Source: a virus. Taken from it: a stretch of 24,699 nt of DNA. Positions 8,220-20,739 of the stretch are shown here, piece after piece. The stretch spans positions 1-24,699 of IMG/VR virus record IMGVR_UViG_3300045988_176129, one strand, 5' to 3'. The notes under the pieces are model-generated. The model saw only the letters and a program-made list of their open reading frames with translations, was not told the origin of the DNA and ran no database searches. The translations under genes were made by a program, and so were the position numbers. How positions within the stretch are numbered: position 1 is the stretch's first letter; every line of letters begins with the position of its first letter.

Positions 8220-8267
8220 GTAGTAATTTTTCACAAAAATAAAAAATTTTTTTGTGCATTTTGCCTA

Positions 8268-8296
8268 TTGACATGGGCGCATTTTTGTGCTATAAT
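8268..8296 (+). promoter_or_regulatory. sigma-70 promoter with no downstream ORF (putative ~450-nt ncRNA 8303-8750)
   Basis: TTGACA 8268-73, 17-nt spacer, TGcTATAAT 8291-96. No SD/ORF before the terminator at ~8715-8752. Confidence 0.5.
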
Positions 8297-8316
8297 TAAA
8301 ATGATATTAAAATGAT

Positions 8317-8351
8317 ACTTTAGCACGTTAAAGTGTCATCACTGCAAAGCG
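8317..8351. repeat. conserved ~35-nt hairpin element (ACTTTAG-CACG-TTAAAGT + GTYATCACTGNRAAGCG), copy a
   Basis: Family also at 8527-8562, 8607-8640, 8683-8703, 9421-9456, 10628-10663, 12725-12760 and 20699-20733. The stem covaries through G-U pairs. Confidence 0.6.
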
Positions 8352-8375
8352 AAAGACTAAGTTAAAATCCGTTTA

Positions 8376-8405
8376 ATTATACCACACAGTCGTATGGTTT
8401 GTCAA
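8376..8405 (-). promoter_or_regulatory. leftward sigma-70 promoter, cassette copy 2 (faces the plus promoter at 8268 across element a)
   Basis: rc TTGACA (8400-05), 18-nt spacer, rc TATAAT (8376-81). Confidence 0.45.
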
Positions 8406-8430
8406 TAGTAAAATGCAAAAAAAATTGCAC

Positions 8431-8462
8431 AAATTTTAATTTCCCATTTTGTGCAATCTGCA
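8431..8462. promoter_or_regulatory. operator-like inverted repeat TTGCACAA-N16-TTGTGCAA
   Basis: Perfect 8-bp arms. A member of the TGCACAA motif family enriched in intergenic DNA. Confidence 0.45.
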
Positions 8463-8479
8463 CAACGAACAAGTGTTTG

Positions 8480-8690
8480 GTTAGCCTTAACTAACTGTCC
8501 AAACAAACGTTCGGTTAGGCAAGACTAACTTTAGTGCGTTAAAGTGCTATCACTTTGCAGTGAACGTGTGGTCGGTTAGGTAAGACTAACTCAAGTTAGG
8601 AGAGGCTAACTTTAGCACACTAAAGTGATGCAGTAGCAAAGAGTTAGTTAAGACTAATTTAAGTTAGTTCAGACTAACATTAACACTTTA
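8480..8690. repeat. second cluster of GTTAG..GACTAACT iteron-like repeats interleaved with three copies of the 35-nt element
   Basis: ggttagccttaactaact / cggttaggcaagactaact / cggttaggtaagactaactc / agttagttaagactaatt / agttagttcagactaac. Confidence 0.55.
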
Positions 8691-8714
8691 ATGTGTTAAA
8701 GTGTTAATACAAAA

Positions 8715-8752
8715 GAGTAGCACAAAGAACACCTGTTCTCTGTGCTTTTTTC
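8715..8752. terminator. bidirectional rho-independent terminator
   Basis: Hairpin GCACAAAGAACACC/TGTTCTCTGTGC followed by TTTTTTCTTTTAT on plus; T-rich on minus as well. Confidence 0.5.
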
Positions 8753-8754
8753 TT

Positions 8755-8880
8755 TTATTTGTTCAATGATTCAATAATCGTAAAACCTGCCATTTCCGCA
8801 TGTCTTATTTCTTCTGTTGTCATTTCTGTTTTTCCTATTGTGCTATTGTTTAATTTTACTATTACTTTTCTCATGGCCAT
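8755..8880 (-). CDS. hypothetical small protein (41 aa) on minus strand inside the early region
   Basis: AAGGAAAGG SD plus its own minus promoter (8910-8938). MAMRKVIVKLNNSTIGKTEMTTEEIRHAEMAGFTIIESLNK. Not in the track (<60 aa). Confidence 0.4.
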   Translation of the reverse strand: MAMRKVIVKLNNSTIGKTEMTTEEIRHAEMAGFTIIESLNK

Positions 8881-8909
8881 CACCAATTCCTTTCCTTATC
8901 TTTATACTA

Positions 8910-8938
8910 ATAATACATCAAAGCCAAACAAAAGTCAA
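8910..8938 (-). promoter_or_regulatory. sigma-70 promoter (minus) for the 8880->8755 gene
   Basis: rc TTGACT (8933-38), 17-nt spacer, rc TATTAT (8910-15). Divergent from the plus promoter at 8981. Confidence 0.45.
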
Positions 8939-8980
8939 TAGTTTTTTACAAAAAAAATAAAAAATATTTTTAAAAAAGTA

Positions 8981-9009
8981 TTGACAAATTGTTAGTTATC
9001 TGGTATTAT
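8981..9009 (+). promoter_or_regulatory. sigma-70 promoter
   Basis: TTGACA 8981-86, 17-nt spacer, TATTAT 9004-09. Confidence 0.5.
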
Positions 9010-9047
9010 TAGATTACAAGGTAAGGAAAGAGAGGAAAGAAACAAAA

Positions 9048-9119
9048 GTGGAGGAACTTATTCAGTGGCAAAGAGAGTTAGGTATTAGTGAGGAACAGAT
9101 AAAAATTAACATGAGGTGA
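9048..9119 (+). CDS. possible GTG-initiated micro-ORF (23 aa, MEELIQWQRELGISEEQIKINMR)
   Basis: Only ORF downstream of promoter 8981. SD AGAGAGG is 11-12 nt from the GTG, which is weak. Confidence 0.2.
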   Translation: MEELIQWQRELGISEEQIKINMR

Positions 9120-9157
9120 TAATTCAATACTAGATGATGAAATAATAAAAATAAGTG

Positions 9158-9186
9158 TTGACAAATGAAGTATTAGATGTTATAAT
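9158..9186 (+). promoter_or_regulatory. sigma-70 promoter
   Basis: TTGACA 9158-63, 17-nt spacer, TATAAT 9181-86. Confidence 0.55.
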
Positions 9187-9239
9187 AAATATATAATAAA
9201 GGAAAGGAAACCCCACCAAAGGGGTAAAGGTAAAAGATT

Positions 9240-9377
9240 ATGAAAACACCAAAAACAAGAGGATTTTATGAGTTCAAAGATGGTACAGTGGTTTGGTTTG
9301 CTGGATTAAGTGCTAGTGAGCAGAGAAAAGAGATTGCTAAGCATGGCGCAATCATAAAGTTTACACATACTAACTAA
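9240..9377 (+). CDS. hypothetical small protein (45 aa)
   Basis: Leader AAAGGAAAGG-hairpin(CCCC/GGGG)-AAAGGTAAAAGATT-ATG. MKTPKTRGFYEFKDGTVVWFAGLSASEQRKEIAKHGAIIKFTHTN. Followed by a terminator. Confidence 0.5.
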   Translation: MKTPKTRGFYEFKDGTVVWFAGLSASEQRKEIAKHGAIIKFTHTN

Positions 9378-9380
9378 AAA

Positions 9381-9410
9381 TGGGGGCGGTCGCTAAACCG
9401 CTCCTTTTAT
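9381..9410. terminator. rho-independent terminator (bidirectional)
   Basis: GGGGCGG-tcgctaaa-CCGCTCC with a G-U pair, then TTTTAT. The minus strand also has ATTTTTAG after the stem. Confidence 0.55.
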
Positions 9411-9468
9411 CTACCCTTGCCGCTTTAGCACGTTGAAGTGTTATCGCTTCACAGCGTCGCACCCCAGT

Positions 9469-9488
9469 ATTGGGCGGGTGGGTGGGTT
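9469..9488 (+). other. G-quadruplex-type G-tract (GGGCGGGTGGGTGGG), copy 2
   Basis: Preceded by a CCCC-agtatt-GGG mini-hairpin. Confidence 0.55.
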
Positions 9489-9497
9489 ATATATAAT

Positions 9498-9526
9498 ATT
9501 ATACCACATTTTCGTCCAGTTGTCAA
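9498..9526 (-). promoter_or_regulatory. leftward extended -10 promoter, cassette copy 3
   Basis: rc TTGACA (9521-26), 17-nt spacer, rc TGGTATAAT (9498-9506). Confidence 0.5.
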
Positions 9527-9649
9527 GAGTAAAAATTCACAAAAGTAAAGAAAATTTTTTGTAACTATTGCACATTGACTTCTAATGTCAATGGCAAAAA
9601 TAGCCAAAGATCTGCCGCACATTTTATGCAACTTTTTTATCAAAAATAG

Positions 9650-9678
9650 TTGACATGTAATAATTCTTTTGTTATAAT
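9650..9678 (+). promoter_or_regulatory. sigma-70 promoter
   Basis: TTGACA 9650-55, 17-nt spacer, TATAAT 9673-78. Leader GTATACATAAGATAAAGGAAA is shared with promoter 10858. Confidence 0.55.
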
Positions 9679-9720
9679 GTATACATAAGATAAAGGAAAA
9701 AGAAAGAGAGGTAAAAAATT

Positions 9721-9939
9721 ATGGAATACAGAACAATTACAGCAGAGGATTTATACAACGCATTAGTAGAGGTTTGCGGAGTATCTGAGGAATTTATCAG
9801 TGGGGCAGTTGCCGTTGGTGGATTCACGAAGGAAACAATGCATGATGTAGCCTATTATAAAAGCGGTTATCAAACCGTTGAGGATTGGGTTGACGCTATT
9901 ACCGATGAATTTTTAGAAGAGTTAGAAAAGGAGGACTAA
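9721..9939 (+). CDS. hypothetical acidic protein (72 aa)
   Basis: AGAGAGGTAA SD. Confidence 0.6.
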   Translation: MEYRTITAEDLYNALVEVCGVSEEFISGAVAVGGFTKETMHDVAYYKSGYQTVEDWVDAITDEFLEELEKED

Positions 9940-9943
9940 TACA

Positions 9944-10111
9944 ATGCCTAAATTAAGAGATGAAACATTAAGAGAACAGCTCATGCTTACATTGATTAAA
10001 AAGCGTGGACATGAGGACAGAGAGGTTATCCAGTTTTGCAATCTTTGCGAACTTAAAGAATTAAGCGATAAAACAATAAGAGATATTTTTGATAGGTTGA
10101 TAAAAGAATAG
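9944..10111 (+). CDS. hypothetical small protein (55 aa)
   Basis: GGAGGA SD 9929-34. Not in the track. Confidence 0.5.
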   Translation: MPKLRDETLREQLMLTLIKKRGHEDREVIQFCNLCELKELSDKTIRDIFDRLIKE

Positions 10112-10123
10112 GAGGTATCTATA

Positions 10124-10279
10124 ATGAATGATAAAGAGACATTAAAAGATATTTTTTCAAAAGCAAAAATTGAAATCCTCACCGAAGAAGAGGATTATTT
10201 AGAGATAGCAACAAGGGGTTACAATATTGTTAGCCTTACTTTTGATAAAGATGGAAAATTAACTAAAATTTTTGCTTGA
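10124..10279 (+). CDS. hypothetical small protein (51 aa)
   Basis: GGAGG SD 10111-15. Stop overlaps the -35 of the next promoter. Confidence 0.5.
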   Translation: MNDKETLKDIFSKAKIEILTEEEDYLEIATRGYNIVSLTFDKDGKLTKIFA

Positions 10280-10304
10280 CATTTTATCTCTACTAATGTA
10301 TAAT
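10276..10304 (+). promoter_or_regulatory. sigma-70 promoter
   Basis: TTGACA 10276-81, 17-nt spacer, TATAAT 10299-304. Confidence 0.5.
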
Positions 10305-10339
10305 TAAAGTATCAAAAGAAAAGAGAAGGTACAAAAGTT

Positions 10340-10579
10340 ATGAGAGATTTTTTTAATATTAAGGATGACTACTACAGATTTGAAATCTATGACCTTACTG
10401 CAATTTTAACAATTTTAAATGTTGTGTTCGTGCTCATGGGTTATTGGTGGGCGCCGATATTTGGACTTGTAAACTGTGCAATTTGTTTAACAATGAATGT
10501 TATTAACAGGTTGCACATAAACGCCTATCTTACTCAGGTCGCGTTAATAATTTTAAATGTTTACTTTTTAACCTTGTAG
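10340..10579 (+). CDS. small membrane protein (79 aa, 2 TM)
   Basis: AGAGAAGGTA SD; hydrophobic. Confidence 0.6.
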   Translation: MRDFFNIKDDYYRFEIYDLTAILTILNVVFVLMGYWWAPIFGLVNCAICLTMNVINRLHINAYLTQVALIILNVYFLTL

Positions 10580-10586
10580 TAAAGGG

Positions 10587-10620
10587 GCGGATGCTAATAT
10601 TTTAGCATCTGCTTTTTTTG
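10587..10620 (+). terminator. rho-independent terminator
   Basis: GCGGATGCTAA-tatt-TTAGCATCTGC then TTTTTTTG. Confidence 0.6.
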
Positions 10621-10668
10621 TTTGTTACACTTTAACACGTTAAAGCGTAATCACTGAGAAGCGCAGAA

Positions 10669-10698
10669 GGGGTCCGACTTAGGGTGGTAGGGTGGGTA
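10669..10698 (+). other. G-quadruplex-type G-tract (GGGGtccgacttaGGGTGGTAGGGTGGG), copy 3
   Basis: Same cassette position. Confidence 0.5.
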
Positions 10699-10705
10699 TA
10701 GATAT

Positions 10706-10735
10706 ATTATAACACATTTCTTGCCCAGTTGTCAA
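10706..10735 (-). promoter_or_regulatory. leftward extended -10 promoter, cassette copy 4
   Basis: rc TTGACA (10730-35), 18-nt spacer, rc TGTTATAAT (10706-14). Confidence 0.45.
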
Positions 10736-10857
10736 TAGTTAAAATTCACAAAAATGATTAAATTTTTTGTTACTATTGACTATTGACAAAAAATTACAAT
10801 GTGCAATAGTAACAAAAAACTTAATGCTAATTTATTCAACTTTTTTCTACTTTTTTA

Positions 10858-10886
10858 TTGACTTTTAACGCTTAAAGCCTTATAAT
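10858..10886 (+). promoter_or_regulatory. sigma-70 promoter
   Basis: TTGACT 10858-63, 17-nt spacer, TATAAT 10881-86. Confidence 0.55.
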
Positions 10887-10939
10887 GTATACATAAGATA
10901 AAGGAAAGGAAATCCAATAAGGATTAAAGGTAAAGAATT

Positions 10940-11284
10940 ATGAGAACAGCAAAGGTGATATTTATTTCAGAAGAAGAGAAAAGCATGATTGACAGATTAA
11001 AAAAGGCATATATGGCAACTGATTCAGGTAAAAAGAAAAACGCTAGAATCGGAGTTGTTCTCACTGAGATGTGGTATGAGGATAGTCTCAGTTTCGAGGA
11101 TTTCCAAATAGATGAAATAGACTGGAATATGATAGACGATATATTAACAGCTTATGAAGATGAGCCATTAAGAGATAATGAAGGTTATATCTTTGATAAA
11201 GAAGATATGCTGGATGCATTGGCGGACTTTGACCCGTTAGCAGATTCTAAAATATACCATGATTATAAAATTATGATAATGTAA
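10940..11284 (+). CDS. hypothetical acidic protein (114 aa)
   Basis: Leader AAAGGAAAGG-hairpin(AATCC/GGATT)-AAAGGTAAAGAATT-ATG. Confidence 0.6.
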   Translation: MRTAKVIFISEEEKSMIDRLKKAYMATDSGKKKNARIGVVLTEMWYEDSLSFEDFQIDEIDWNMIDDILTAYEDEPLRDNEGYIFDKEDMLDALADFDPLADSKIYHDYKIMIM

Positions 11285-11288
11285 GAAA

Positions 11289-11320
11289 AAAGGCAAGCAC
11301 TTTTTATGCTTGCCTTTATT
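11289..11320 (+). terminator. rho-independent terminator
   Basis: AGGCAAGC-actttttat-GCTTGCCT then TTATTAT. Confidence 0.55.
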
Positions 11321-11380
11321 ATAGCTTAAAAGTTAGTTGTAACTAACTAAGATTAGACTCGACTAACTCCGGTCTTCTCC
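11321..11380. repeat. third short cluster of GTTAG/ACTAACT iteron-like repeats
   Basis: aagttagttgtaactaactaagattagactcgactaactcc. Confidence 0.45.
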
Positions 11381-11408
11381 GGGGTGGGTGGGAGGGGGAG
11401 GGTGGAGG
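11381..11408 (+). other. G-quadruplex-type G-tract (GGGGTGGGTGGGAGGGGGAGGGTGGAGG), copy 4
   Basis: Same cassette position. The leftward -10 here is degenerate (TTAGCA). Confidence 0.55.
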
Positions 11409-11564
11409 ATAAGTTTAGCACAAATCAGCTTTTTTGTCAATTGGTAAAAATTCACAAAAGTAAAGGAAAATTTTTAGTATTATTGACTATTGTATCTTTT
11501 TGTCAATGTGCAATAGTAACAAAATTTTAAACTTTAATTTGTGCATTTTTTTTCTTCAAAACAC

Positions 11565-11592
11565 TTGCAATTTATAACCAAAGTGATATAAT
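11565..11592 (+). promoter_or_regulatory. sigma-70 promoter
   Basis: TTGCAA 11565-70, 16-nt spacer, TATAAT 11587-92. Confidence 0.5.
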
Positions 11593-11616
11593 AAATAATG
11601 TAAGGAGGCGATAACA

Positions 11617-11730
11617 ATGATAGTAATAATCAATGATACAAAGTTTGGTTTAATGCTAGTTGACTCTGAGACTGGTGAGATATTAGCTGAGGGCAAACAG
11701 GAAATAATAAATTTTATAAAAAGTTGTTGA
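11617..11730 (+). CDS. hypothetical micro-protein (37 aa)
   Basis: AAGGAGG SD. MIVIINDTKFGLMLVDSETGEILAEGKQEIINFIKSC. Confidence 0.4.
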   Translation: MIVIINDTKFGLMLVDSETGEILAEGKQEIINFIKSC

Positions 11731-11755
11731 CAAATAAAGCACAAAGTGATATAAT
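11727..11755 (+). promoter_or_regulatory. sigma-70 promoter
   Basis: TTGACA 11727-32, 17-nt spacer, TATAAT 11750-55. Confidence 0.55.
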
Positions 11756-11809
11756 AAATACAAGATAAAGGAAAGGGAATCCAAAAAAAGGATTTAAAGG
11801 TAAAAAGAT

Positions 11810-11980
11810 ATGAGAAAAATAGTAGTAAAAACAAATGGACAGATAATAATGACAATAGCAACTAGCGGCGTTGCTAAAATAATTCAGATGAACGATACAA
11901 CTTATAGATATACAGATATATGGGGCGATAGTAAGACATTCAAAGTTAGGAAAGGCTCTGAAGTAACTTTGGAAGATTAA
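11810..11980 (+). CDS. hypothetical small protein (56 aa)
   Basis: Leader with AATCC-A7-GGATT hairpin and AAAGGTAAAAAGAT-ATG. Confidence 0.5.
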   Translation: MRKIVVKTNGQIIMTIATSGVAKIIQMNDTTYRYTDIWGDSKTFKVRKGSEVTLED

Positions 11981-12033
11981 AATATATAATTAAGGGGCGG
12001 TTAGTTGATACCGCCCAGGAAGAGGGACATTGT

Positions 12034-12174
12034 ATGACAAAGCAGGAAATACTAGACTATATGGACGATTTTAAGGATGAATATGGAAGCTCATTTACAG
12101 ATTCAAATTTTGAGATAAGCAATATTATAGAAGAAGCATTAGACCTGTATTTTGATACAATAAAGGAGGCATAA
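12034..12174 (+). CDS. hypothetical small acidic protein (46 aa)
   Basis: GGAAGAGGG SD. Preceded by a GGGCGGT/ACCGCCC hairpin that lacks a T-tract. Confidence 0.45.
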   Translation: MTKQEILDYMDDFKDEYGSSFTDSNFEISNIIEEALDLYFDTIKEA

Positions 12175-12175
12175 T

Positions 12176-12298
12176 ATGAGCGCATTTGAGATTAAAAGAG
12201 ATTTAGAGGATGTATATGGCATCCGTCTTTGGGATGGACAGTGTTTGTGGTTTGGTAGTAGAGAAGAAAGAGATATTGCATTCTTGTTAATGCAGTAA
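12176..12298 (+). CDS. hypothetical small protein (40 aa)
   Basis: AAAGGAGG SD 12162-69. Confidence 0.45.
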   Translation: MSAFEIKRDLEDVYGIRLWDGQCLWFGSREERDIAFLLMQ

Positions 12299-12308
12299 GG
12301 AGGATAAT

Positions 12309-12488
12309 ATGGATATAGATGGATTATTATTTTTAGGAAAACCAGAAGATTATGCTATAAATATATTAAGAGAACATCATAGCTATTTCATGCTAGAATC
12401 TCATGGGGATAGCTTTGATTATATCTATTGGGATAAATACAGGTTTGTTTTTATCAATAAAATCTGTACAAAGGTAACATTAAAATAA
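12309..12488 (+). CDS. hypothetical small protein (59 aa)
   Basis: AAGGAGGA SD 12297-304. Confidence 0.5.
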   Translation: MDIDGLLFLGKPEDYAINILREHHSYFMLESHGDSFDYIYWDKYRFVFINKICTKVTLK

Positions 12489-12504
12489 TAAAGGAGCAAT
12501 GAAT

Positions 12505-12681
12505 ATGAAGATTAAAAAAGAAATAGTCATGACTCAAAAAGAGTATGACATGCTTAAAAAGTTAGAAGTCATATTTGAGAATAGCCCTATGTATGATGAC
12601 TGCTCTTTTGGTGATTTTATTTACTCTATAGTAGAAGGAAGCTGCACTGAAAATTATGGTTATGATTTAATAATAGAATAA
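12505..12681 (+). CDS. hypothetical small protein (58 aa)
   Basis: AAGGAG SD 12491-96. The ATG at 12499 is too close to the SD, so 12505 is preferred. Confidence 0.55.
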   Translation: MKIKKEIVMTQKEYDMLKKLEVIFENSPMYDDCSFGDFIYSIVEGSCTENYGYDLIIE

Positions 12682-12686
12682 AATGC

Positions 12687-12716
12687 GGGCGGAGAGACAT
12701 TCTCCGCCTTTTATCT
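12687..12716. terminator. rho-independent terminator
   Basis: GGCGGAGAG-acat-TCTCCGCC then TTTTAT. Confidence 0.6.
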
Positions 12717-12785
12717 GCGGTTATCACTTCACCACGCTAAAGTGTTATTACTGTGAAGCGTGAAGCCTCGACCTTACCCCACTTT

Positions 12786-12801
12786 GGGGTGGGTGGGTGG
12801 G
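12786..12801 (+). other. G-quadruplex-type G-tract (GGGGTGGGTGGGTGGG), copy 5
   Basis: Canonical (G3N1)4. Preceded by CCCC-acttt-GGGG. Confidence 0.6.
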
Positions 12802-12809
12802 CTTAAAAT

Positions 12810-12838
12810 TATTATACCACAGATTACTGTCTTTGTCA
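12810..12838 (-). promoter_or_regulatory. leftward extended -10 promoter, cassette copy 6
   Basis: rc TTGACA (12833-38), 17-nt spacer, rc TGGTATAAT (12810-18). Confidence 0.5.
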
Positions 12839-12886
12839 ATAGATAAATTATCCTAAAATTAAAAAATTTTTTGTGCAATATTTTAC

Positions 12887-12915
12887 TTGACTTTTAATGT
12901 ATTATCACTTATAAT
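12887..12915 (+). promoter_or_regulatory. sigma-70 promoter (first of a tandem pair)
   Basis: TTGACT 12887-92, 17-nt spacer, TATAAT 12910-15. Confidence 0.5.
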
Positions 12916-12919
12916 AAAT

Positions 12920-13020
12920 ATAGAAATTAAAGATAAGACCCCTACAAAGTAGACAAGGTGGGTTAGCTTTTATAACTGGCTTGCTTTGTTGAAAGTAGGG
13001 GCGCATAATGAAAAAATAAG
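12920..13020 (+). ncRNA. candidate structured leader / small RNA between tandem promoters
   Basis: Nested helices CCCCTAC...GTAGGGG, CAAAG...CTTTG and CAAGG...CTTG. No ORF. Confidence 0.25.
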
Positions 13021-13023
13021 TGT

Positions 13024-13052
13024 TGACAAAAGAAAATGAATATGATATAATA
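13024..13052 (+). promoter_or_regulatory. sigma-70 promoter
   Basis: TTGACA 13024-29, 17-nt spacer, TATAAT 13047-52. Confidence 0.55.
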
Positions 13053-13086
13053 AATACATAATAAAGGAAAAGAGAGGTAATAAAGT

Positions 13087-13548
13087 ATGAGAGAGTTTGA
13101 AAAAGTATTGGTATTTGATATGGATGGCACAATAGCTAATCTATATGGAGTAAATAATTGGCTTGAGTCATTGAGAGCGTATGACCCCAGCCCTTATGAA
13201 AAGGCAATGCCCCTATATGACATGGATATGCTTAATTCTATATTACATATCATAAAATCTAAGGGTTGGCATATTGTAGTTACAAGCTGGCTTTCAAAGG
13301 AATCCACCCCTATATATGATAAGGCAGTCCGCAAAGCTAAAAGAGATTGGTTAAAAGAATGGGGCGTCCCATATGATGAAATACATCTTGTAAAGTATGG
13401 AACACCAAAGCATAGAGTAACAAGGTATCCTTTTCAGGTGTTAGTTGATGATAACGCAGATGTGCGGAGTGCATGGCATGGACGCACAATAGATGCAAAC
13501 AAAGATATTATAAACGAACTTATAAAAATAGTTATGGATGAATTTTAG
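13087..13548 (+). CDS. HAD-superfamily hydrolase, 5'(3')-deoxyribonucleotidase-like
   Basis: HAD motif I VFDMDGTIA at the N-terminus. Overall resemblance to the NT5C-type dNMP nucleotidases common in large phages. Confidence 0.6.
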   Translation: MREFEKVLVFDMDGTIANLYGVNNWLESLRAYDPSPYEKAMPLYDMDMLNSILHIIKSKGWHIVVTSWLSKESTPIYDKAVRKAKRDWLKEWGVPYDEIHLVKYGTPKHRVTRYPFQVLVDDNADVRSAWHGRTIDANKDIINELIKIVMDEF

Positions 13549-13597
13549 GCGGAGGGGCATATATGGCCCGCCCCCCAATTAAAAAGGAGGAATATAT

Positions 13598-13915
13598 ATG
13601 AATTTAGAGGATTTTGTAGCAAGTGAATTAAGAAAAACTAAATTTTATGATAAAGATAATAACATGTTTCATCCCTGCGTTTCATTGTTTATAGAAAAAG
13701 ACGCATATATAGAAATGTATATAGAGGATATGATTTCTGTTTTTGTAGGACAGTATGCTTCTAAAAAGCATAAACAGAGTGATTATAAAGTATCTACAGA
13801 GCATGTGTCCGATTCTCCTGGGTTAGATAAATATATAACTTTTATATCATATGCAGAATATGATGGAGAAAAAGTTAATATTGAAGCATTTACTATTGAT
13901 TCTTACTGTTGCTAG
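13598..13915 (+). CDS. hypothetical protein (105 aa)
   Basis: AAAGGAGG SD. Preceded by a GC-rich hairpin at 13549-13585 without a T-tract. Confidence 0.6.
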   Translation: MNLEDFVASELRKTKFYDKDNNMFHPCVSLFIEKDAYIEMYIEDMISVFVGQYASKKHKQSDYKVSTEHVSDSPGLDKYITFISYAEYDGEKVNIEAFTIDSYCC

Positions 13916-13925
13916 GAGGCTATAT

Positions 13926-14150
13926 ATGATGAAAAATTTAAAAACTATATCAATAATTACAATAGTGGTGACAGAAATAATTCACTTTATCCTTGCTATT
14001 GCTTTTGTTGGTATTATGGTAATATTAACTAAATACAGTTTTTCATGGAAAACTGTTATATGTATCTATTTCGTAATAGACTGGATAAAAGGTTTACAGT
14101 ATAGTTATGAGTTATTACGAGTTGGGTTTATTGTTGGCAGGTTTAAATGA
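13926..14150 (+). CDS. small membrane protein (74 aa, 2 TM)
   Basis: AGGAGG SD 13911-16. The track's 13851 start is an upstream in-frame extension. Confidence 0.55.
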   Translation: MMKNLKTISIITIVVTEIIHFILAIAFVGIMVILTKYSFSWKTVICIYFVIDWIKGLQYSYELLRVGFIVGRFK

Positions 14151-14158
14151 AAAAACAC

Positions 14159-14187
14159 TTGACAAATAAAATATAATATGATATGAT
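14159..14187 (+). promoter_or_regulatory. sigma-70 promoter
   Basis: TTGACA 14159-64, 17-nt spacer, TATGAT 14182-87. Confidence 0.5.
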
Positions 14188-14219
14188 AGATATATCAAAT
14201 GAAAGAGAGGTATAATAAT

Positions 14220-14444
14220 ATGAAGATTACAGAAACTAAAAAAGCAACAATAGAAGTTACAGATGAGGAATATCGCACTATTCAGACTTTCTGTAAATGG
14301 TTAAATGATAACTTATGTTGTGAAGATGTATCCTGTGCAGTGCAAGTGTTTGGAGAAGAAGAGCTTCTTATTTTTGAAGGTATATCTCCAACAATGAACA
14401 ATGTTGATATAGAGATTAAAATAAAAAATTTTAATATATCATAA
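14220..14444 (+). CDS. hypothetical protein (74 aa)
   Basis: AGAGAGGTA SD. The track start 14199 has no SD. Confidence 0.55.
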   Translation: MKITETKKATIEVTDEEYRTIQTFCKWLNDNLCCEDVSCAVQVFGEEELLIFEGISPTMNNVDIEIKIKNFNIS

Positions 14445-14475
14445 TAAATATATCAAATGAAAGGAAATAGTGTAT

Positions 14476-14634
14476 ATGACTAAAAATGAATTTATGGATA
14501 GTATTTTAAAAGAGATTGGCTCTTATTATGATGAATGTGAAAATAGTATTTTAAAGGAGATTGAAGAAAATGAGGTTATAGAGACTGCTAGAGATTTTCC
14601 ACGGTCATACATAAATTCTGATGAAAATTTGTAA
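14476..14634 (+). CDS. hypothetical small acidic protein (52 aa)
   Basis: AAAGGAAA SD. Not in the track. Confidence 0.45.
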   Translation: MTKNEFMDSILKEIGSYYDECENSILKEIEENEVIETARDFPRSYINSDENL

Positions 14635-14646
14635 AGCATAAAAATT

Positions 14647-14695
14647 ATGCACAAAAAGCCTGAGGTAGAAAATATCTCAGGCTTTTTGTGCATTT
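14647..14695. terminator. bidirectional terminator / large perfect palindrome
   Basis: TGCACAAAAAGCCTGAGG-tagaaaatat-CCTCAGGCTTTTTGTGCA. Arms carry the TGCACAA motif. T-rich flanks on both strands. Confidence 0.55.
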
Positions 14696-14758
14696 TGACG
14701 AAAAATAGAATCGGCATTTTGCACAAAAGCGTAAATGAAAATTTGTATGAATTGCCTA

Positions 14759-14787
14759 TTGACAAGCACCCCTGTATGTGATATAAT
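14759..14787 (+). promoter_or_regulatory. sigma-70 promoter firing into a GC hairpin
   Basis: TTGACA 14759-64, 17-nt spacer, TATAAT 14782-87. Confidence 0.5.
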
Positions 14788-14790
14788 TGG

Positions 14791-14819
14791 GCGGCGCGTG
14801 CCCTGCCCTTACGCGCCGC
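14791..14819. other. perfect 9-bp GC hairpin (GCGGCGCGT-gccctgccctt-ACGCGCCGC) between convergent promoters
   Basis: Both facing promoters would start transcription inside or adjacent to it. Confidence 0.55.
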
Positions 14820-14822
14820 AAT

Positions 14823-14852
14823 ATTATACCATAGTCCCCTATGGTTTGTCAA
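14823..14852 (-). promoter_or_regulatory. leftward extended -10 promoter, cassette copy 7
   Basis: rc TTGACA (14847-52), 18-nt spacer, rc TGGTATAAT (14823-31). Confidence 0.5.
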
Positions 14853-15067
14853 GACTAATTTTTAAAAAAATTGCACAAATTTTGCGATTCCCGAAAGACT
14901 TTTATTGTGCAAAATGACGAATTTTAACTTTGTGAAATCTGCACAAAACCCGCCCCGCATTTTTAGTTATTTTGCCATATTGTATTTTACCCTCTAATGT
15001 GATATTATAATACTTGTAAGGAAGAGAAAAACAAAAGCAAGCAACCTTAAAGAAAATAAAAAAAGTG

Positions 15068-15096
15068 CTTGACATTCTACTTCCTAGGGTGTATAA
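15068..15096 (+). promoter_or_regulatory. sigma-70 promoter
   Basis: TTGACA 15068-73, 17-nt spacer, TATAAT 15091-96. Confidence 0.55.
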
Positions 15097-15131
15097 TAAA
15101 TACATAATAAAGAAAAGAGAGGTACAACAAC

Positions 15132-16094
15132 ATGAAAAGAAAGTATTATTTAACATTAGACACAGAGACAGCTACAATGCCATTTGTAAAGTATATGGAT
15201 TTAAGTCCAAAGGCAAGACAACAGGTGGCAATAGCAAAGCCCCTTGTATATGATATAGGATGGTGTATCACTACAACTCAGGGAGATGTTATAAAAAAGG
15301 TAAACTATCTTATACAGGAAACATTCTTTGTTCCACAGGTATTTAATACCGCCTATTATAAGAATAAGCGACCTATTTATATGGAGCTTCTTAAAAAAGG
15401 CGAGATTGAAGTTAGAAACTGGAATAATGCTATAGAAGAACTGATAGCCGACCTTGATTTTTGTGATATGGCATGCGCATATAACGCATGTTTTGATTAC
15501 AAGAAGGCTATCCCGTTTACAGAACGTTATATTAAAGCATTATATAGCGACTACTATAATGAATGGGAAGATATGCAGAGAAAATCTGCTGAAAGGATCG
15601 CTGAAGGTGTTGATGAAAGCGAAAATCCAGAATATCTTGACCCTATTTTCCAGATTAGAGGATATGAGTTTCCTATATTGGATTTATGGGGCATGGCTTG
15701 TAAAAGACTTATAAATGTTAATAGATATAAGAAATTCTGTTATGAGAATAACTTGTTTACTAATTCAGCGATGTATTTTAAAACAAGTGCTGAGACAAGT
15801 TTTCAGTATCTCATGGATAATGTGGATTTTATCGAAGACCATACCGCATTATCAGACGCACTTATTGAGAGTGCAATTCTTACAAAGGGATTAAAAAAGG
15901 GTAAAGTTGAGCCAGATATTACAGCTTTCCCTTTTAGGGAGTTAGGTTATACATATTGCAATTGCCCTAAAAAGTATATCCCAAATGTGGCAAGTGCCTT
16001 TGAAGAATACTTAAATAAAAATAGCAATCATCCATCTAACGCATGGTGGACAAGAATTGAAAGTATTTATGAGGGGCTTATGGCTTACTTATAA
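15132..16094 (+). CDS. DEDDh-family 3'-5' exonuclease (DnaQ/RNase T-like)
   Basis: Exo I LTLDTETAT, Exo II AYNACFDYKKA, Exo III HTALSDALIESAIL. AGAGAGGTAC SD. Confidence 0.8.
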   Translation: MKRKYYLTLDTETATMPFVKYMDLSPKARQQVAIAKPLVYDIGWCITTTQGDVIKKVNYLIQETFFVPQVFNTAYYKNKRPIYMELLKKGEIEVRNWNNAIEELIADLDFCDMACAYNACFDYKKAIPFTERYIKALYSDYYNEWEDMQRKSAERIAEGVDESENPEYLDPIFQIRGYEFPILDLWGMACKRLINVNRYKKFCYENNLFTNSAMYFKTSAETSFQYLMDNVDFIEDHTALSDALIESAILTKGLKKGKVEPDITAFPFRELGYTYCNCPKKYIPNVASAFEEYLNKNSNHPSNAWWTRIESIYEGLMAYL

Positions 16095-16459: not shown

Positions 16460-16843
16460 ATGACACAGAGAGAAATGTTTAACGCAATGGTAAAGGTAGT
16501 AAATGAGGCTTCAGTAGATACTATTGAGGAGGTAGGATTTTCAAAAGATGAACTTCTTGAGGGCATCAATGCTAGAATAGAGGCTCTTGATAAGAAAAAT
16601 AGTTCATCTTCTAGCAAGCCTACAAAAAAGCAGTTAGAAAACGAAGGTATCTATAATAATATTATAGAGATTATGTCTGATAATGCATCTCGTACTGTTA
16701 GACAGATAACAGACATTTACAATTCAACTTTTGATGCAGATTTGTCAACCAATAGAGTCCAGCCACAGGTAACAAAGGCGGTAAAGAATGGAATTTTTAA
16801 CAGAACTGTTGTGAAAGGTGTCGTATATTTTGTAAGCAAGTAA
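16460..16843 (+). CDS. hypothetical protein, paralog A of the 18083 gene
   Basis: MTQREMFNAMVKV...ARIEALDKK...ENEGIY...QVTKAVKNG...VVKGVVYF is alignable along its length with 18083-18526. Confidence 0.7.
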   Translation: MTQREMFNAMVKVVNEASVDTIEEVGFSKDELLEGINARIEALDKKNSSSSSKPTKKQLENEGIYNNIIEIMSDNASRTVRQITDIYNSTFDADLSTNRVQPQVTKAVKNGIFNRTVVKGVVYFVSK

Positions 16844-17345: not shown

Positions 17346-17351
17346 AAGTCA

Positions 17352-17388
17352 ATTGGCAAGATGCACAAAATCTTGCCAATTTTTTTAT
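17352..17388. terminator. bidirectional rho-independent terminator with TGCACAA in the loop
   Basis: ATTGGCAAGA-tgcacaaa-TCTTGCCAAT then TTTTTTTAT. The minus strand also has a T-rich flank. Confidence 0.6.
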
Positions 17389-17458: not shown

Positions 17459-17488
17459 ATTATACCATACCCTCGTATGGTTTGTCAA
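17459..17488 (-). promoter_or_regulatory. leftward extended -10 promoter, cassette copy 8
   Basis: rc TTGACA (17483-88), 18-nt spacer, rc TGGTATAAT (17459-67). Confidence 0.5.
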
Positions 17489-17618
17489 GACATAAAATAC
17501 AAAAAACTTGCACAAATTTCATAATCCCGAAAGGCTAAATTTCTCTCTATTGCACAAAAGTAAAAATTCTTTGTGCAACATGCACAAAGATTCACTCTCT
17601 CGCCCCCATTTTTTATAC

Positions 17619-17916: not shown

Positions 17917-17929
17917 TAAAAATGTAAAA

Positions 17930-18030
17930 AAGATAAGGCTTAAGGCTTCAAAAATGATTTCGACCCTGTGCCTATTCAAACAGGGCTGAATAAGAGGTTT
18001 GAGGTTCAACCCCTTCGCCTTACCAAAAAA
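17930..18030 (+). ncRNA. structured ~100-nt 5' leader with a T-arm-like hairpin and duplicated GGGCTGAAT motif
   Basis: Hairpins CCCTGT-gcctattcaa-ACAGGG and GAGG-TTCAACC-CCTT, ending in ...GCCTTACCA. Not a canonical tRNA by hand folding. Confidence 0.25.
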
Positions 18031-18082: not shown

Positions 18083-18526
18083 ATGACACAGAGAGAGATG
18101 TATAACACAATTAAGAACATTATCACAGGTATTTCAACAGAGGACTTCGAGGCACTTGCCCCAGAGTTTTCAAGAGAAGAGATTGTTGAGGGTATTGATG
18201 CTAGAATTGAGGCACTCAATAAGAAGTCAACAGGTTCAAAGAAGCCTACAAAGACTCAGATTGAGAACGAGGGCATATATGCTAATATTCTTGCGTTTAT
18301 GGCGGATGGTGCGGCTCGTACTAACAAAGCTATTACTGATACCTATAATCTTCTGTATAACACAGAGTATTCTACAAACAAGATTCAGGCTCAGGTAACT
18401 AAGGCTGTCAAGGGTGGCGCGCTTAACAGGGCAGTAGTAAAGGGTGTCGTATATTTCACCATAAATGCTACTCCTACCGCCACAGATGACTCAGCAGAAG
18501 ATATTGTTGATGATGTAGAAGAGTAA
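18083..18526 (+). CDS. hypothetical protein, paralog B of the 16460 gene, with an extra acidic C-terminal tail
   Basis: MTQREMYNTIKNI...ARIEALNKK...ENEGIY...QVTKAVKGG...VVKGVVYF. AAAGGATGGA SD. Confidence 0.7.
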   Translation: MTQREMYNTIKNIITGISTEDFEALAPEFSREEIVEGIDARIEALNKKSTGSKKPTKTQIENEGIYANILAFMADGAARTNKAITDTYNLLYNTEYSTNKIQAQVTKAVKGGALNRAVVKGVVYFTINATPTATDDSAEDIVDDVEE

Positions 18527-18576: not shown

Positions 18577-18653
18577 GCAAGGTTATAAAAATTCGTTTTT
18601 ATAGTGGTTATAATTTTATAATTATAAAAAAGGTTCGACTCCTTTACCTTGCA
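18577..18653 (+). ncRNA. tRNA-like element (possible degenerate or atypical phage tRNA)
   Basis: Perfect 7-bp acceptor stem GCAAGGT/ACCTTGC. Canonical T-arm AAAGG-TTCGACT-CCTTT (G53 T54 T55 C56 R57 A58 ... C61). D arm TAAA/TTTA. The anticodon arm is AT-rich and non-canonical: best fit is an 8-nt loop, and the D-loop has no GG. Confidence 0.3.
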
Positions 18654-18685: not shown

Positions 18686-18711
18686 GGGGCGGTCAATACC
18701 TTCACCGCCCC
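18686..18711 (+). other. 8-bp GC hairpin GGGGCGGT-caataccttc-ACCGCCCC without a T-tract
   Basis: Upstream of promoter 18732. Possible processing or partial-termination site. Confidence 0.35.
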
Positions 18712-18731
18712 GCACACCTTAAAAATAGGTG

Positions 18732-18760
18732 TTGACAAATTGAGGTATAGGGTGTATAAT
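18732..18760 (+). promoter_or_regulatory. sigma-70 promoter
   Basis: TTGACA 18732-37, 17-nt spacer, TATAAT 18755-60. Confidence 0.55.
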
Positions 18761-18791
18761 AAGGTATAATCAAAAAAGGATGGTGGTAGTT

Positions 18792-19211
18792 ATGAAAATA
18801 ACAACAACAAAAGGTAAAAGTGTTAATGTAAAAGATAGCGTTATTCAGAAATACATGAACGACTTCTCTCTTACAAAAGAGGACGCTATTCAGATGTATC
18901 TTGAGGATGAAGGCTTCGAGGATAACGAGGATGTAGAAGAAATGACTACAAAAGCCAAAGAAAATAAAGCAGTTATGCATGGCGAGAGTGCTGACAAAGA
19001 CGAACGCAAAGTCACCAACAAGAAACAGTCTAAGCCTAAGACAGTGAAAATCTCAGATACAAAAAAAGAACTTTTTAGTAAAATATCACAGTTTTTGACC
19101 GAAACTTTTGGTGAAAATGCTGAAGTTCTTAAAGAAAATAAGCTGATACAGGTTAAAATTGGTGAAGATATGTTCAAAATAGACATAATTCAGCAGAGAA
19201 AACCAAAGTAA
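18792..19211 (+). CDS. hypothetical charged protein (139 aa)
   Basis: AAAGGATGG SD with 9-nt spacing to ATG 18792. The track start 18780 abuts the SD. Confidence 0.6.
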   Translation: MKITTTKGKSVNVKDSVIQKYMNDFSLTKEDAIQMYLEDEGFEDNEDVEEMTTKAKENKAVMHGESADKDERKVTNKKQSKPKTVKISDTKKELFSKISQFLTETFGENAEVLKENKLIQVKIGEDMFKIDIIQQRKPK

Positions 19212-19243
19212 TTTGGTAAAATTTAACAAATGACCTCTCTTTT

Positions 19244-19287
19244 GAGCGAGTTTTTAGTAAAAAATGCTAAAAATTCGCTCTTTTTTT
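19244..19287 (+). terminator. rho-independent terminator
   Basis: GAGCGAG-25-nt loop-CTCGCTC then TTTTTTT. Confidence 0.45.
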
Positions 19288-19302
19288 GTGCAATTTTTAT
19301 AC

Positions 19303-19331
19303 TTGACAAGAGATAAAAGATATGGTATAAT
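19303..19331 (+). promoter_or_regulatory. sigma-70 promoter firing directly into a GC hairpin plus T-tract
   Basis: TTGACA 19303-08, 17-nt spacer, TGGTATAAT 19323-31. Then GCGGGGCGC...GCGCCCCCGC (19334-62) followed by TTTTAAAAA. Confidence 0.5.
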
Positions 19332-19423
19332 GGGCGGGGCGCGATAGACCGGGCGCCCCCGCTTTTAAAAATCAAGTGTAATTTTGAACAAAAATAAAAT
19401 AATTTTTTGTTTATTTTGTCTAT

Positions 19424-19451
19424 TGATAAAATCCTAAAACATTGTTATAAT
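19424..19451 (+). promoter_or_regulatory. sigma-70 promoter
   Basis: TTGATA 19424-29, 16-nt spacer, TATAAT 19446-51. Confidence 0.45.
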
Positions 19452-19486
19452 GTATTTACAAAGTTAAGGAAAGAGAGGTAACTAAA

Positions 19487-19741
19487 ATGAAAGTATCAAG
19501 AAAAATGAAAGTGCCAAGAAATGAAATGATTAAAATCAGAAAAAATCTTCTCAGACAGATGGATGATTATCTGCGGTCAAGCGTTGATGAAAACATTATC
19601 ATTGATATTTGGTTTGCTGTTGGTCTTGAGGATGGATGGGATAATAATATTTTAACAGAGTATGCAAGTGATGAAGATTTATGGCTGTCTTGCGTTAATG
19701 CTTTTAAAGCCTGTTGTGAAAGAGAAAATATTTTAAAATAA
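19487..19741 (+). CDS. hypothetical protein (84 aa)
   Basis: AGAGAGGTAA SD. Confidence 0.6.
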   Translation: MKVSRKMKVPRNEMIKIRKNLLRQMDDYLRSSVDENIIIDIWFAVGLEDGWDNNILTEYASDEDLWLSCVNAFKACCERENILK

Positions 19742-19747
19742 TGTTTC

Positions 19748-19776
19748 TTGACAAATAGTTGACCATATGGTATAAT
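19748..19776 (+). promoter_or_regulatory. sigma-70 promoter
   Basis: TTGACA 19748-53, 17-nt spacer, TGGTATAAT 19768-76. Confidence 0.55.
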
Positions 19777-19805
19777 AAATATATAAAGAAAGAGAGGTAA
19801 TTGAA

Positions 19806-20144
19806 ATGAAAGATTTTATTATTATGGCAATCGTTATGACAATAGTAGTTGGAGCGCTTTTATCATTTATAATTGTAAATATTTTCGCAGAAAATAGTAA
19901 GTCTATATTAAAAAAGATTATTACTGTAATAATTGCTATTGCTATTGGATGTGGAATAAGTGGATTATTCGCACTGGAAAGAAGGGGTGATGAAGTAGCA
20001 TGGAACAATGGTTATTGTACAGAATGTGAACATCCTTATAGATTCGCTAATACAGAGTATCACAGAAATGCGGGAACTACTTATATTTGGGTTTGTGATA
20101 ATTGTGGAAAAATAATTGAATTGCATAGTAAATATTCAAAATAA
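19806..20144 (+). CDS. membrane protein (2 TM) with C-terminal zinc ribbon (CTEC...CDNC)
   Basis: AGAGAGGTAA SD. Hydrophobic N-terminal half and a Cys4 ribbon. Confidence 0.65.
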   Translation: MKDFIIMAIVMTIVVGALLSFIIVNIFAENSKSILKKIITVIIAIAIGCGISGLFALERRGDEVAWNNGYCTECEHPYRFANTEYHRNAGTTYIWVCDNCGKIIELHSKYSK

Positions 20145-20163
20145 AAAGGAGGAATAAGATATA

Positions 20164-20469
20164 ATGAATATTGAAAATAAAATAAGCGGTTGGAAAATTA
20201 CAGGTTTTGAAACAAAGCCGATTTTTGATAGTCAAATTCTTTCTCTTGAGGAGTGCATGAAAACAATCAAAAAACAGGAAACAATGAATTTTATCCTTGA
20301 TACATTCCGTTTTATTAAAGGAATGAAAGAAGGCGACTGGTTCGCTCTTATTGACCGTGATACGATTATGAAAATTTCTATTATGGAAACAAATTCAAAA
20401 GAAGAAGAACAACTAAAAGAGTATTTTGGCGAAAACTGGATTGAAAATTATTTACGGTTTAATCATTAA
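20164..20469 (+). CDS. hypothetical protein (101 aa)
   Basis: AAGGAGGAA SD. Confidence 0.6.
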   Translation: MNIENKISGWKITGFETKPIFDSQILSLEECMKTIKKQETMNFILDTFRFIKGMKEGDWFALIDRDTIMKISIMETNSKEEEQLKEYFGENWIENYLRFNH

Positions 20470-20483
20470 AGATTGCGGAGAAT

Positions 20484-20516
20484 GATAGAAGAGTAAAATC
20501 TTCTATCATTTTTTTG
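20484..20516 (+). terminator. rho-independent terminator ending the plus-strand early block
   Basis: GATAGAAGA-gtaaaa-TCTTCTATC then ATTTTTTT. Confidence 0.6.
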
Positions 20517-20526
20517 CATTTACCTA

Positions 20527-20555
20527 TTGACAAAAGCAAGAAAGTATGCTAAAAT
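20527..20555 (+). promoter_or_regulatory. sigma-70 promoter firing into a GC hairpin (no ORF)
   Basis: TTGACA 20527-32, 17-nt spacer, TAAAAT 20550-55. Hairpin CGGGCC...GGCCCG at 20558-84. Confidence 0.45.
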
Positions 20556-20586
20556 GTCGGGCCGCGCACGTAGGAGCAGGCCCGCA

Positions 20587-20615
20587 ATTATACCACAAAT
20601 TACACTTCAAGTCAA
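20587..20615 (-). promoter_or_regulatory. leftward extended -10 promoter, cassette copy 9
   Basis: rc TTGACT (20610-15), 17-nt spacer, rc TGGTATAAT (20587-95). Confidence 0.45.
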
Positions 20616-20739
20616 GTTTTTTTCAAAATAAAAATGCACAAATTTTTTGCTATTTTCCCGAAAGTCTTTGTGCAATTTGTACAATGTGATGCGGTAGCAC
20701 TTTAACGCGGTGAAGTGTAACAGTATGAAGTGATAAAGG

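Follow-up and report, generated by a model that had tools for sequence, protein, structure and literature searches.

The stretch analysed here (the window) comprises 24,699 nucleotides (nt), positions 1 to 24,699 of the IMG/VR virus record IMGVR_UViG_3300045988_176129, and represents part of the genome of an uncultured phage of gut or rumen. Its early-type region, from 8.2 to 20.7 kb, holds small forward-strand genes and ~22 perfect TTGACA-N17-TATAAT promoters. A heptamer, TTGTGCA (TGCACAA on the opposite strand; hereafter box A), recurs in the intergenic DNA of this region at fixed distances upstream of a separate class of promoters, and is the subject of this report.

TTGTGCA boxes and the promoters they accompany

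Exact copies of the heptamer were counted in the window and in dinucleotide-preserving shuffles of it. This count resulted in 21 sites against 2.94 +/- 1.69 in the shuffles, none of which (0/100) reached 21, bearing out the enrichment proposed in the first-pass annotation of this DNA. Of all 7-mers in the window, GCACAAA and TGCACAA are the most over-represented, both ranking above the -35 word TTGACAA. The first-pass annotation had also described at least 20 occurrences, all of them non-coding; the number stands, but one copy (5773-5779, minus strand) lies inside a Dam-like methyltransferase gene and was taken as a chance match outside the system. The other 20 sites fall in non-coding DNA (binomial P = 1.7e-10), which makes up 28% of the window by heuristic gene calls made for this analysis from ribosome-binding sites and open reading frame (ORF) length, and the density is thus not equal inside coding DNA. 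These sites are distributed over at least nine intergenic regions from 8.2 to 20.7 kb. One-mismatch variants of the box are not generally enriched, with the exception of TTCACAA (six non-coding sites). The ATTGCACATTG/CAATGTGCAAT boxes reported earlier are real (9567, 10797 and 11504) but are one-mismatch variants within longer inverted repeats: 12-nt inverted repeats, TTGTTACTATTG / CAATAGTAACAA, surround the variant ATGTGCA (CAATGTGCAAT) at 10767-10815, 9567-9594 and 11484-11522, and may represent a second operator type in B-type intergenic modules.

The promoters of the early region were categorized into two classes. Class I promoters (~15) drive the small early genes, have the layout (a)agTG before and an A-rich leader with a ribosome-binding site after, and in no case carry the box. 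Class II promoters carry the box, mostly have an extended -10 (TGTGGTATAAT), and give rise to predicted transcripts with a GC-rich or C-rich, hairpin-forming start to which no ORF is attached in the window; the mean fold energy of the first 50 nt is -11.6 kcal/mol for class II and -2.8 for class I. Nine class II promoters lie on the minus strand, opposing the direction of all early genes. Judged by their sequence, class II promoters are otherwise perfect sigma-A promoters (TTGACA, 16-18 nt spacer, TATAAT): 12 promoters bearing the box or its variant TTGTGAA match 11-12 of the 12 consensus positions, mostly with a TG extension, and P+11565 and P-11440 match 10 of 12 (P+ and P- denote promoters on the plus and minus strands).

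The position of the box relative to these promoters is constrained. Eight TTGTGCA boxes point at a -35 hexamer, with gaps of 9, 9, 10, 19, 19, 19, 20 and 20 nt, and the variant TTGTGAA is found at a gap of 9-10 nt at four more minus-strand promoters. Seven reverse-oriented copies lie 31-52 nt upstream of a -35. Copies further upstream are whole helical turns away, at ~-81 and ~-91, often as the dyad TTGTGCA-N3-TGCACAA, which is present in exact form at 8449-8465 and 17571-17587 and in degenerate form at 14930-14946 and 20668-20684; by arithmetic from the coordinates, the cluster at 17551-17587 lies 62, 82 and 92 nt from P-17488. A second motif, box B (TTYGGGA), is oriented and lies ~33 nt upstream of the -35, at ~-70. 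The features are as follows, with coordinates, strand and, for boxes, the gap to the -35.

8191-8236 (minus): class II P-8219 (promoter 8191-8219), variant TTGTGAA 8230-8236, gap 10; C-rich start (CCCACCC)
8252-8258 (plus): box A, 9 nt upstream of the -35 of P+8268; as a reverse box, 32 nt upstream of the divergent P-8219
8268-8296 (plus): class II P+8268, TTGACA-N17-TATAAT with TG extension; no ORF downstream; faces P-8405
8376-8465 (minus): class II P-8405 (promoter 8376-8405) with three-box array; proximal box 8426-8432, gap 20
8449-8465 (minus): dyad TTGTGCA-ATC-TGCACAA of P-8405, gaps 43 and 53
9498-9542 (minus): class II P-9526, variant TTGTGAA 9536-9542, gap 9
10706-10751 (minus): class II P-10735, variant TTGTGAA 10745-10751, gap 9
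11412-11457 (minus): weaker P-11440, variant TTGTGAA 11451-11457, gap 10
11539-11592 (plus): box A 11539-11545 and P+11565 (TTGCAA-N16-TATAAT), gap 19
12811-12915 (unstranded): divergent pair P-12839 (12811-12839) and P+12887 (12887-12915) with common box A 12871-12877, gap 9 to P+12887 and 31, in reverse orientation, to P-12839; a box-B-like TTTTAGGAT adjoins P-12839
14648-14692 (unstranded): bidirectional terminator, palindrome with 17-bp arms; outer arms TGCACAA and TTGTGCA
14720-14787 (plus): reverse box 14720-14726, gap 32, and P+14759; the proximal slot holds a degenerate TTGTATG
14759-14787 (plus): P+14759, running straight into a GC hairpin; faces P-14852
14823-14946 (minus): array of class II P-14852 (promoter 14823-14852); proximal box 14872-14878, gap 19; reverse box 14905-14911, gap 52
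14888-14895 (minus): box B TTCGGGAA of P-14852
14930-14946 (minus): degenerate dyad TTGTGAA-ATC-TGCACAA of P-14852
17351-17381 (unstranded): bidirectional terminator hairpin with TGCACAA 17362-17368 in the loop
17459-17587 (minus): array of class II P-17488 (promoter 17459-17488); proximal box 17509-17515, gap 20; box 17551-17557
17524-17531 (minus): box B of P-17488
17571-17587: dyad TTGTGCA-ACA-TGCACAA of the P-17488 array
19286-19365 (plus): box A 19286-19292 and P+19303 (19303-19331), gap 10; short GC hairpin followed by a T-run; no ORF directly attached
20527-20684 (unstranded): facing P+20527 (20527-20555) and P-20615 (20587-20615) with a GC-rich segment between; upstream of P-20615, proximal box 20635-20641, gap 19, box B 20655-20662 and degenerate dyad TTGTGCA-ATT-TGTACAA 20668-20684

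Several of these features had been recognized at first pass, including the large palindrome with the motif as its outer arms, the motif in the terminator loop, and the TTGCACAA...TTGTGCAA pair now placed at 14871-14912 (previously 14869-14914). The TTGCACAA-N16-TTGTGCAA pair likewise exists, but at 8425-8456, ~6 nt from its earlier position, and the segment 17509-17590 contains four exact sites rather than three. The earlier assignment of boxes to -10 regions had to be abandoned, as the sites at 11539, 12871, 19286 and 8252 end 19, 9, 10 and 9 nt upstream of the -35 hexamer, and the supposed site at 8280-90 reads TTGTGCT and is the TG-extended -10 of P+8268.

Three minus-strand promoters stand face to face with plus-strand promoters (8268/8405, 14759/14852 and 20527/20615). 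In two of these pairs a GC-rich hairpin of ~30 nt lies between the promoters, and both hairpin strands would be transcribed because the facing promoters flank it; the 8268/8405 pair is ~80 nt apart across a structured segment. G-runs of the GGGTGGGTGGG type are located directly downstream of minus-strand class II promoters (9476-9490, 11382-11408, 12787-12801, 8163-8182 and 10686-10700), from which non-coding RNAs of ~110 nt starting CCCACCCACCC are predicted. A TTAGCAC...GTG hairpin is conserved in these predicted RNAs, which run as far as the bidirectional terminators of upstream operons.

The box in related phages and in bacterial chromosomes

Related loci were collected by means of the sigma-like protein encoded in the window, to which their homologs are 53-61% identical, and the promoter and box module is present in these loci as well. 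Across the window and 38 related loci, with 397 near-consensus promoters, the TTGTGCA gap is 9/10 nt in 31 cases and 19/20 nt in 20, and reverse-oriented copies peak at 42/43, 31/32 and 52/53 nt. The spacing of inverted pairs, start to start, is 10 nt (the tight dyad), 13, 23 or 33 nt. Box B, in the form TT[CT][GA]GGA, lies 32-36 nt upstream of the -35 in a single orientation in 30 of 38 occurrences, usually alongside box A. Box A is common to 47 non-redundant promoters of diverged relatives, the flanks of which differ.

A motif-independent set was also assembled, in which promoters were sorted solely by the GC content of the initial transcript. In this set the box is present at 13/32 promoters with a GC-rich start and at 6/122 others (Fisher 1.6e-6). 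Among the class II promoters of the clade, 47/74 have no ORF within 160 nt; the rest drive ordinary early genes, and the box is therefore a feature of the promoter rather than of non-coding RNA. No autoregulated regulator gene was found downstream of class II promoters. One clade member (L008) is nearly box-free. In its early region (~2800-9200, minus strand) the word AATGTAA is found a few bases past the -10 at nearly all early promoters (31 vs 9.4 expected) and may be a lineage-specific operator.

Searching IMG/VR for the box together with a perfect promoter resulted in at least 120 loci, many with 2-4 matches, whereas two control heptamers of the same composition gave 49 and 23 loci, all with single matches. 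A stricter module pattern that included CCCGAAAG gave no matches in IMG/VR, the pattern being too strict, and the dyad scan of IMG/VR was fixed at N3 and says nothing on other spacings. The dyad was found at promoter-type distances in contig groups that, over the fetched fragments, share no detectable protein with the window. In one such group it lies upstream of terS promoters, at 33 or 41-42 nt to the -35, and in another within the inverted terminal repeats of a PolB phage. One contig (L125) has three tandem dyads (251-363) just upstream of a terS-terL-portal operon, and the 13-kb PolB-type contig (L054) has two TTGTGCA-N3-TGCACAA dyads in each inverted terminal repeat (22-103 and 12977-13058).

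A corresponding genome scan for the box with a perfect promoter also resulted in at least 120 loci; among those listed, 102 are from Clostridia and 49 of these from Oscillospirales taxa, by a hand count of titles. The chromosomal matches are mostly before housekeeping genes (rplU, acpP, ylxM-ffh, purA, a tRNA and T-box-like leaders). At orthologous chromosomal promoters the box is kept at the same gap as in the phages while the spacer has diverged, and extra half-sites cluster 23-43 nt upstream. One chromosomal match (L227, nrdD) is actually an NrdR box. No regulator gene was found beside the dyads in either the chromosomal loci or the unrelated contig groups.

Candidate binders and alternative explanations

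The dyad symmetry, strict orientation, phasing on a single DNA face and conservation of the box together point to a protein site at the level of DNA that is coupled to RNA polymerase, and TTGTGCA is probably the operator half-site of a sequence-specific, likely dimeric, DNA-binding transcription regulator. The proposal of a dimeric-regulator operator in the first-pass annotation thus gains from the dyad form, the strict distances and orientation, the copies phased by 10 bp and the invariance in diverged relatives. The accompanying proposal that the motif controls the early promoters does not fare as well, as the box is absent from the ~15 promoters of the small early genes and marks a separate class. 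Simple steric repression of early promoters is unlikely because the box is located upstream of the -35 and not on the -10.

Under the mechanism that we propose, an array of proteins on one face of the DNA would touch RNA polymerase from upstream, through the alpha C-terminal domain or sigma region 4. On reading the promoter sequences, the -35-adjacent copy appears to be a full 17-bp site with a degenerate promoter-side half (TTGTGCA-nnn-TGCCTA-TTGACA), which would place a dimer near -43, the position of a class II activator, or one turn upstream, with extra dimers ~three turns upstream. The effect could be activation, or repression by over-stabilising the polymerase in the manner of phi29 p4. 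Regulation of class II promoters would also modulate early output, as these promoters point against the early operons or lie antisense to them, and the array may in this way tune both class II promoters and neighbouring early operons via convergent or antisense transcription.

Several observations weigh against an operator of this kind. The need for an activator is not obvious at promoters in which consensus -35, -10 and TG extension are already in place, and the three sites in terminator hairpins may have a role in RNA or DNA structure. About half of the GC-start promoters in relatives lack the exact box, and L008 is nearly without it. The number of chromosomal matches is within the range of chance, with a further 42 perfect promoters across the same 682 kb, and the other promoters of 90 chromosomal loci have no box. 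Faecalibacterium phage Mushu shows no enrichment (1 site vs 3 expected).

As to the identity of the binder, we tentatively and slightly favour a conserved Clostridia/Oscillospirales host factor over an early protein of the phage. The box does not vary among phages of 29-46% GC, in contrast to the recognition helix of the clade's candidate regulator, described below. The dyads of the contig groups without a detectable common protein in the fetched fragments, and the box kept at orthologous chromosomal promoters, point the same way. The Enterococcus phage VRE9_4 (L018), a relative, has six perfect cre-consensus palindromes (TGTAAGCGCTTACA and similar) in its early region, at 8019, 13486, 14085, 15060, 16516 and 17003 (12 strand-matches vs 0.08 expected), two of which are ~-78 from promoters that also have a half-site beside the -35; these palindromes show that this phage lineage is able to make use of the operator of a host regulator. 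Some of them overlap mini-ORF-like ATG...TAG strings preceded by GGAGG. In a broader and more speculative version, which we consider possible but rather unlikely, the box would serve as operator for a global regulator of Oscillospirales/Clostridia that is highly conserved but uncharacterised, and at least three phage groups, with no detectable common protein in the fetched fragments, would have wired this operator into the same promoter slot; in the clade it would gate the early operons via antisense non-coding promoters, and Enterococcus relatives would fill the slot with cre/CcpA sites. If so, phage promoter architecture would contain a conserved 'host-state sensor' position.

The doubtful, though best surviving, alternative is that the operator is read by a phage-encoded early protein, made from the box-less class I promoters, that switches class II on or off as a temporal switch. 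Twenty boxes per 12 kb are typical of phage-encoded regulators, and the phage helix-turn-helix (HTH) regulator sought since the first pass has candidates in a winged-helix family with two members in the window.

16460-16843 (plus): 127-residue early protein with C-terminal winged helix; candidate phage regulator that the data do not link to the box
18083-18526 (plus): winged-helix paralog, 56% identical to the 16460-16843 product

The C-terminal domain is predicted to fold as a canonical winged helix (predicted local distance difference test, pLDDT, > 93 over residues 60-127) that resembles RosR and BlaI/MecI, PadR and ArsR-type regulators, and family members give weak Pfam matches to HTH_24, MarR, PadR and TrmB. 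Several copies per locus are encoded throughout the clade, and a family member is present in 45/107 box-bearing IMG/VR loci and in 0/72 control loci, a co-occurrence confounded with clade membership. The recognition-helix region, however, reads STNRVQPQVTK in the window and SNQRVSALVRQ in most box-rich phages, whereas the box does not change, and L008 has three consensus-type copies with essentially no boxes. The family is for these two reasons a candidate without support, and it was rejected as the binder since its recognition helix does not track the box. No member was found in the fetched fragments of the unrelated dyad-bearing contig groups, and Pfam identified no other HTH among ~30 window ORFs, the smallest ORFs being outside the scan.

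Reading by the host RNA polymerase itself, or by a constitutively associated subunit, with the box as an UP-element-like booster of very strong promoters and no separate regulator, is improbable. The box at -51 to -45, or one turn further, does fall in the UP-element zone (-40 to -60) and within the known helical-turn tolerance of the alpha C-terminal domain, and chromosomal matches mostly precede strong housekeeping genes. Against this, the specific G/C core and dyad form are unlike the A/T-tract subsites of UP elements, which are general to strong promoters; ~15 equally perfect class I promoters lack the box; and copies out to ~-100 and box B are left unexplained. A general host UP-like element was ruled out, as the other promoters in the 90 chromosomal loci are without the box.

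Duplicated intergenic cassettes (paralogous repeats), or replication or packaging sites such as iterons and cosB-like terminase sites, are a still less probable origin of the boxes. Although the intergenic modules are visibly paralogous, dyads occur just upstream of terS in one contig group and in the terminal repeats of PolB phage, and many box-bearing loci are at contig ends, the distance between box and -35 is kept with diverged flanks in the relatives, and heptamers of the same composition are at least 2.5-5 times rarer at this position. In the window the boxes are not clustered at one origin or beside terS but spread over 12 kb, at least 6 kb from the terminase gene (1-2378), and the dyads of the terS group are themselves at promoter-type distances from the -35. 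An RNA- or DNA-structure element, in which inverted copies act as hairpin stems or loops of terminators, processing sites or kissing loops, is the least credible explanation: the copies at 14648 and 14686 do lengthen a terminator stem, that at 17362 lies in a terminator loop, and inverted pairs could form stems of 7-8 bp transcribed through read-through from facing promoters, but a hairpin with a T-run holds only 3/21 sites, in eight cases in the window a single box stands at a set distance and orientation to a -35, most sites are between divergent promoters, the arms never covary and are invariant in sequence across relatives, spacings shift in 10-bp steps, and Rfam gives no match at the motif even at a relaxed threshold.

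Three further candidates were set aside. A phage sigma promoter is not indicated, as no consistent second element follows the box at promoter spacing and no boxes are near sigma or late genes; a restriction-modification link via TGCA is contradicted by the absence of TGCA avoidance (84 vs 90 expected); and NrdR and DnaA boxes do not match in sequence, by reading.

With the box as a regulator's operator, the data provide a precise cis-regulatory grammar (box A, box B and their distances) for gut/rumen phages of 90-200 kb, an uncultured clade that is very abundant, tell apart two promoter classes in its early region, and indicate that the early programme includes conserved antisense non-coding transcription. 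A host factor as the binder would mean that the box defines a so far unknown Oscillospirales regulon and adds a new example of phages that read host physiology; a phage-encoded binder would mean that the box marks the sites of the early switch.

Known operators and other features of the window

The putative system resembles known upstream operators, namely those of phi29 p4/Spo0A, class I/II activators, and the CtrA or LexA boxes of phages, and matches none of them in sequence or spacing. A full-text literature search for the heptamers returned primer-type matches only. In phi29, regulation is by p4, '0A boxes' of the host regulator Spo0A are located near early and late promoters, and over-stabilisation can repress strong promoters. 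Shared with the present case are short boxes upstream of strong sigma-A promoters in a Firmicute phage, upstream regulation via contact with RNA polymerase (as proposed here), and boxes also near genome ends, as in the PolB-type contig; phi29 further illustrates a lytic phage that reads a host master regulator. The 0A box, however, is TGTCGAA, a CG to GC swap away, and is absent from the window (0 matches); p4 acts at an inverted repeat of unrelated sequence, with no p4 homolog seen; and the box-bearing promoters here are mostly non-coding and antisense.

Class I/II sites of CRP/FNR and Rex have the forms TGTGA-N6-TCACA and TTGTGAA-N4-TTCACAA. The half-site is similar, with TTGTGAA being the variant at four window promoters, and dyad symmetry and fixed, helically phased promoter positions are held in common. 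The dyad here is nevertheless 1 bp shorter (TTGTG-N7-CACAA vs N8), as is also the case for the two tight dyads in the motif-independent set, the core has C instead of A, and a lone half-site abuts the -35. The cre site of CcpA (TGWAANCGNTNWCA) offers a likeness only through the six perfect palindromes in the equivalent early region of VRE9_4; box A is unrelated to it in sequence and has odd (7-3-7) symmetry, and the window contains one one-mismatch cre match vs 1.44 expected.

Boxes of host regulators are also reported in phages, namely those of CtrA in phages of alphaproteobacteria (PMC9437464) and those of LexA in GIL01 (PMC4551915). If the binder is a host factor, the likeness would be that the operator of a conserved host regulator is placed on phage promoters and the phage programme follows host physiology. 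Compared with those cases, the present phage has far more sites per genome, these are on non-coding antisense promoters, and the host regulator is a candidate.

Outside the box system, the large-terminase gene (1-2378) is interrupted by a group I intron (Rfam 94.7 bits; 650-911, minus strand, with 838-1674, minus strand) that carries a GIY-YIG homing-endonuclease ORF, the exon pieces of the gene being at 1-649 and 1587-2378. Besides the sigma-like protein, the window encodes the Dam-like adenine methyltransferase, of the D12 class, at 5453-6175 (plus strand). GATC is strongly depleted across the whole window (10 observed vs 56 expected), and GGCC, GTAC and CCGG are likewise low.

A megablast search of 8000-16000 against deposited phages gave no match. 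Among deposited phage records the nearest is a 12-kb fecal 'Bacteriophage sp.' sequence without annotation, the sigma-like protein of which is 60% identical; distant named relatives are the Enterococcus phages EF1/H1/VRE9, Brevibacillus phage Sundance and Geobacillus virus E3. A protein identical to one of the window was found on a 140-kb metagenomic contig.

The sole plausible minus-strand protein gene of the early region, at 8755-8880, encodes 41 residues, with a promoter of its own at 8938-8910 and a terminator at 8746-8719. At 8052-8137 a 20-bp unit, CTAACTCCGGTTAGACTGAA, is present in 4.3 tandem copies, each unit being a small inverted repeat, with dispersed copies also at 8480-8680 and 11320-11370. 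ACTAACT is strongly enriched in a relative (L014; 24 vs 2.8 expected) as well. Finally, two tRNA-like elements (18577-18653 and 17940-18024; GGTTCGACTCC) flank the winged-helix paralog gene; they have a good acceptor stem and T arm, one has a CCA end, and ARAGORN detects them at relaxed thresholds only.

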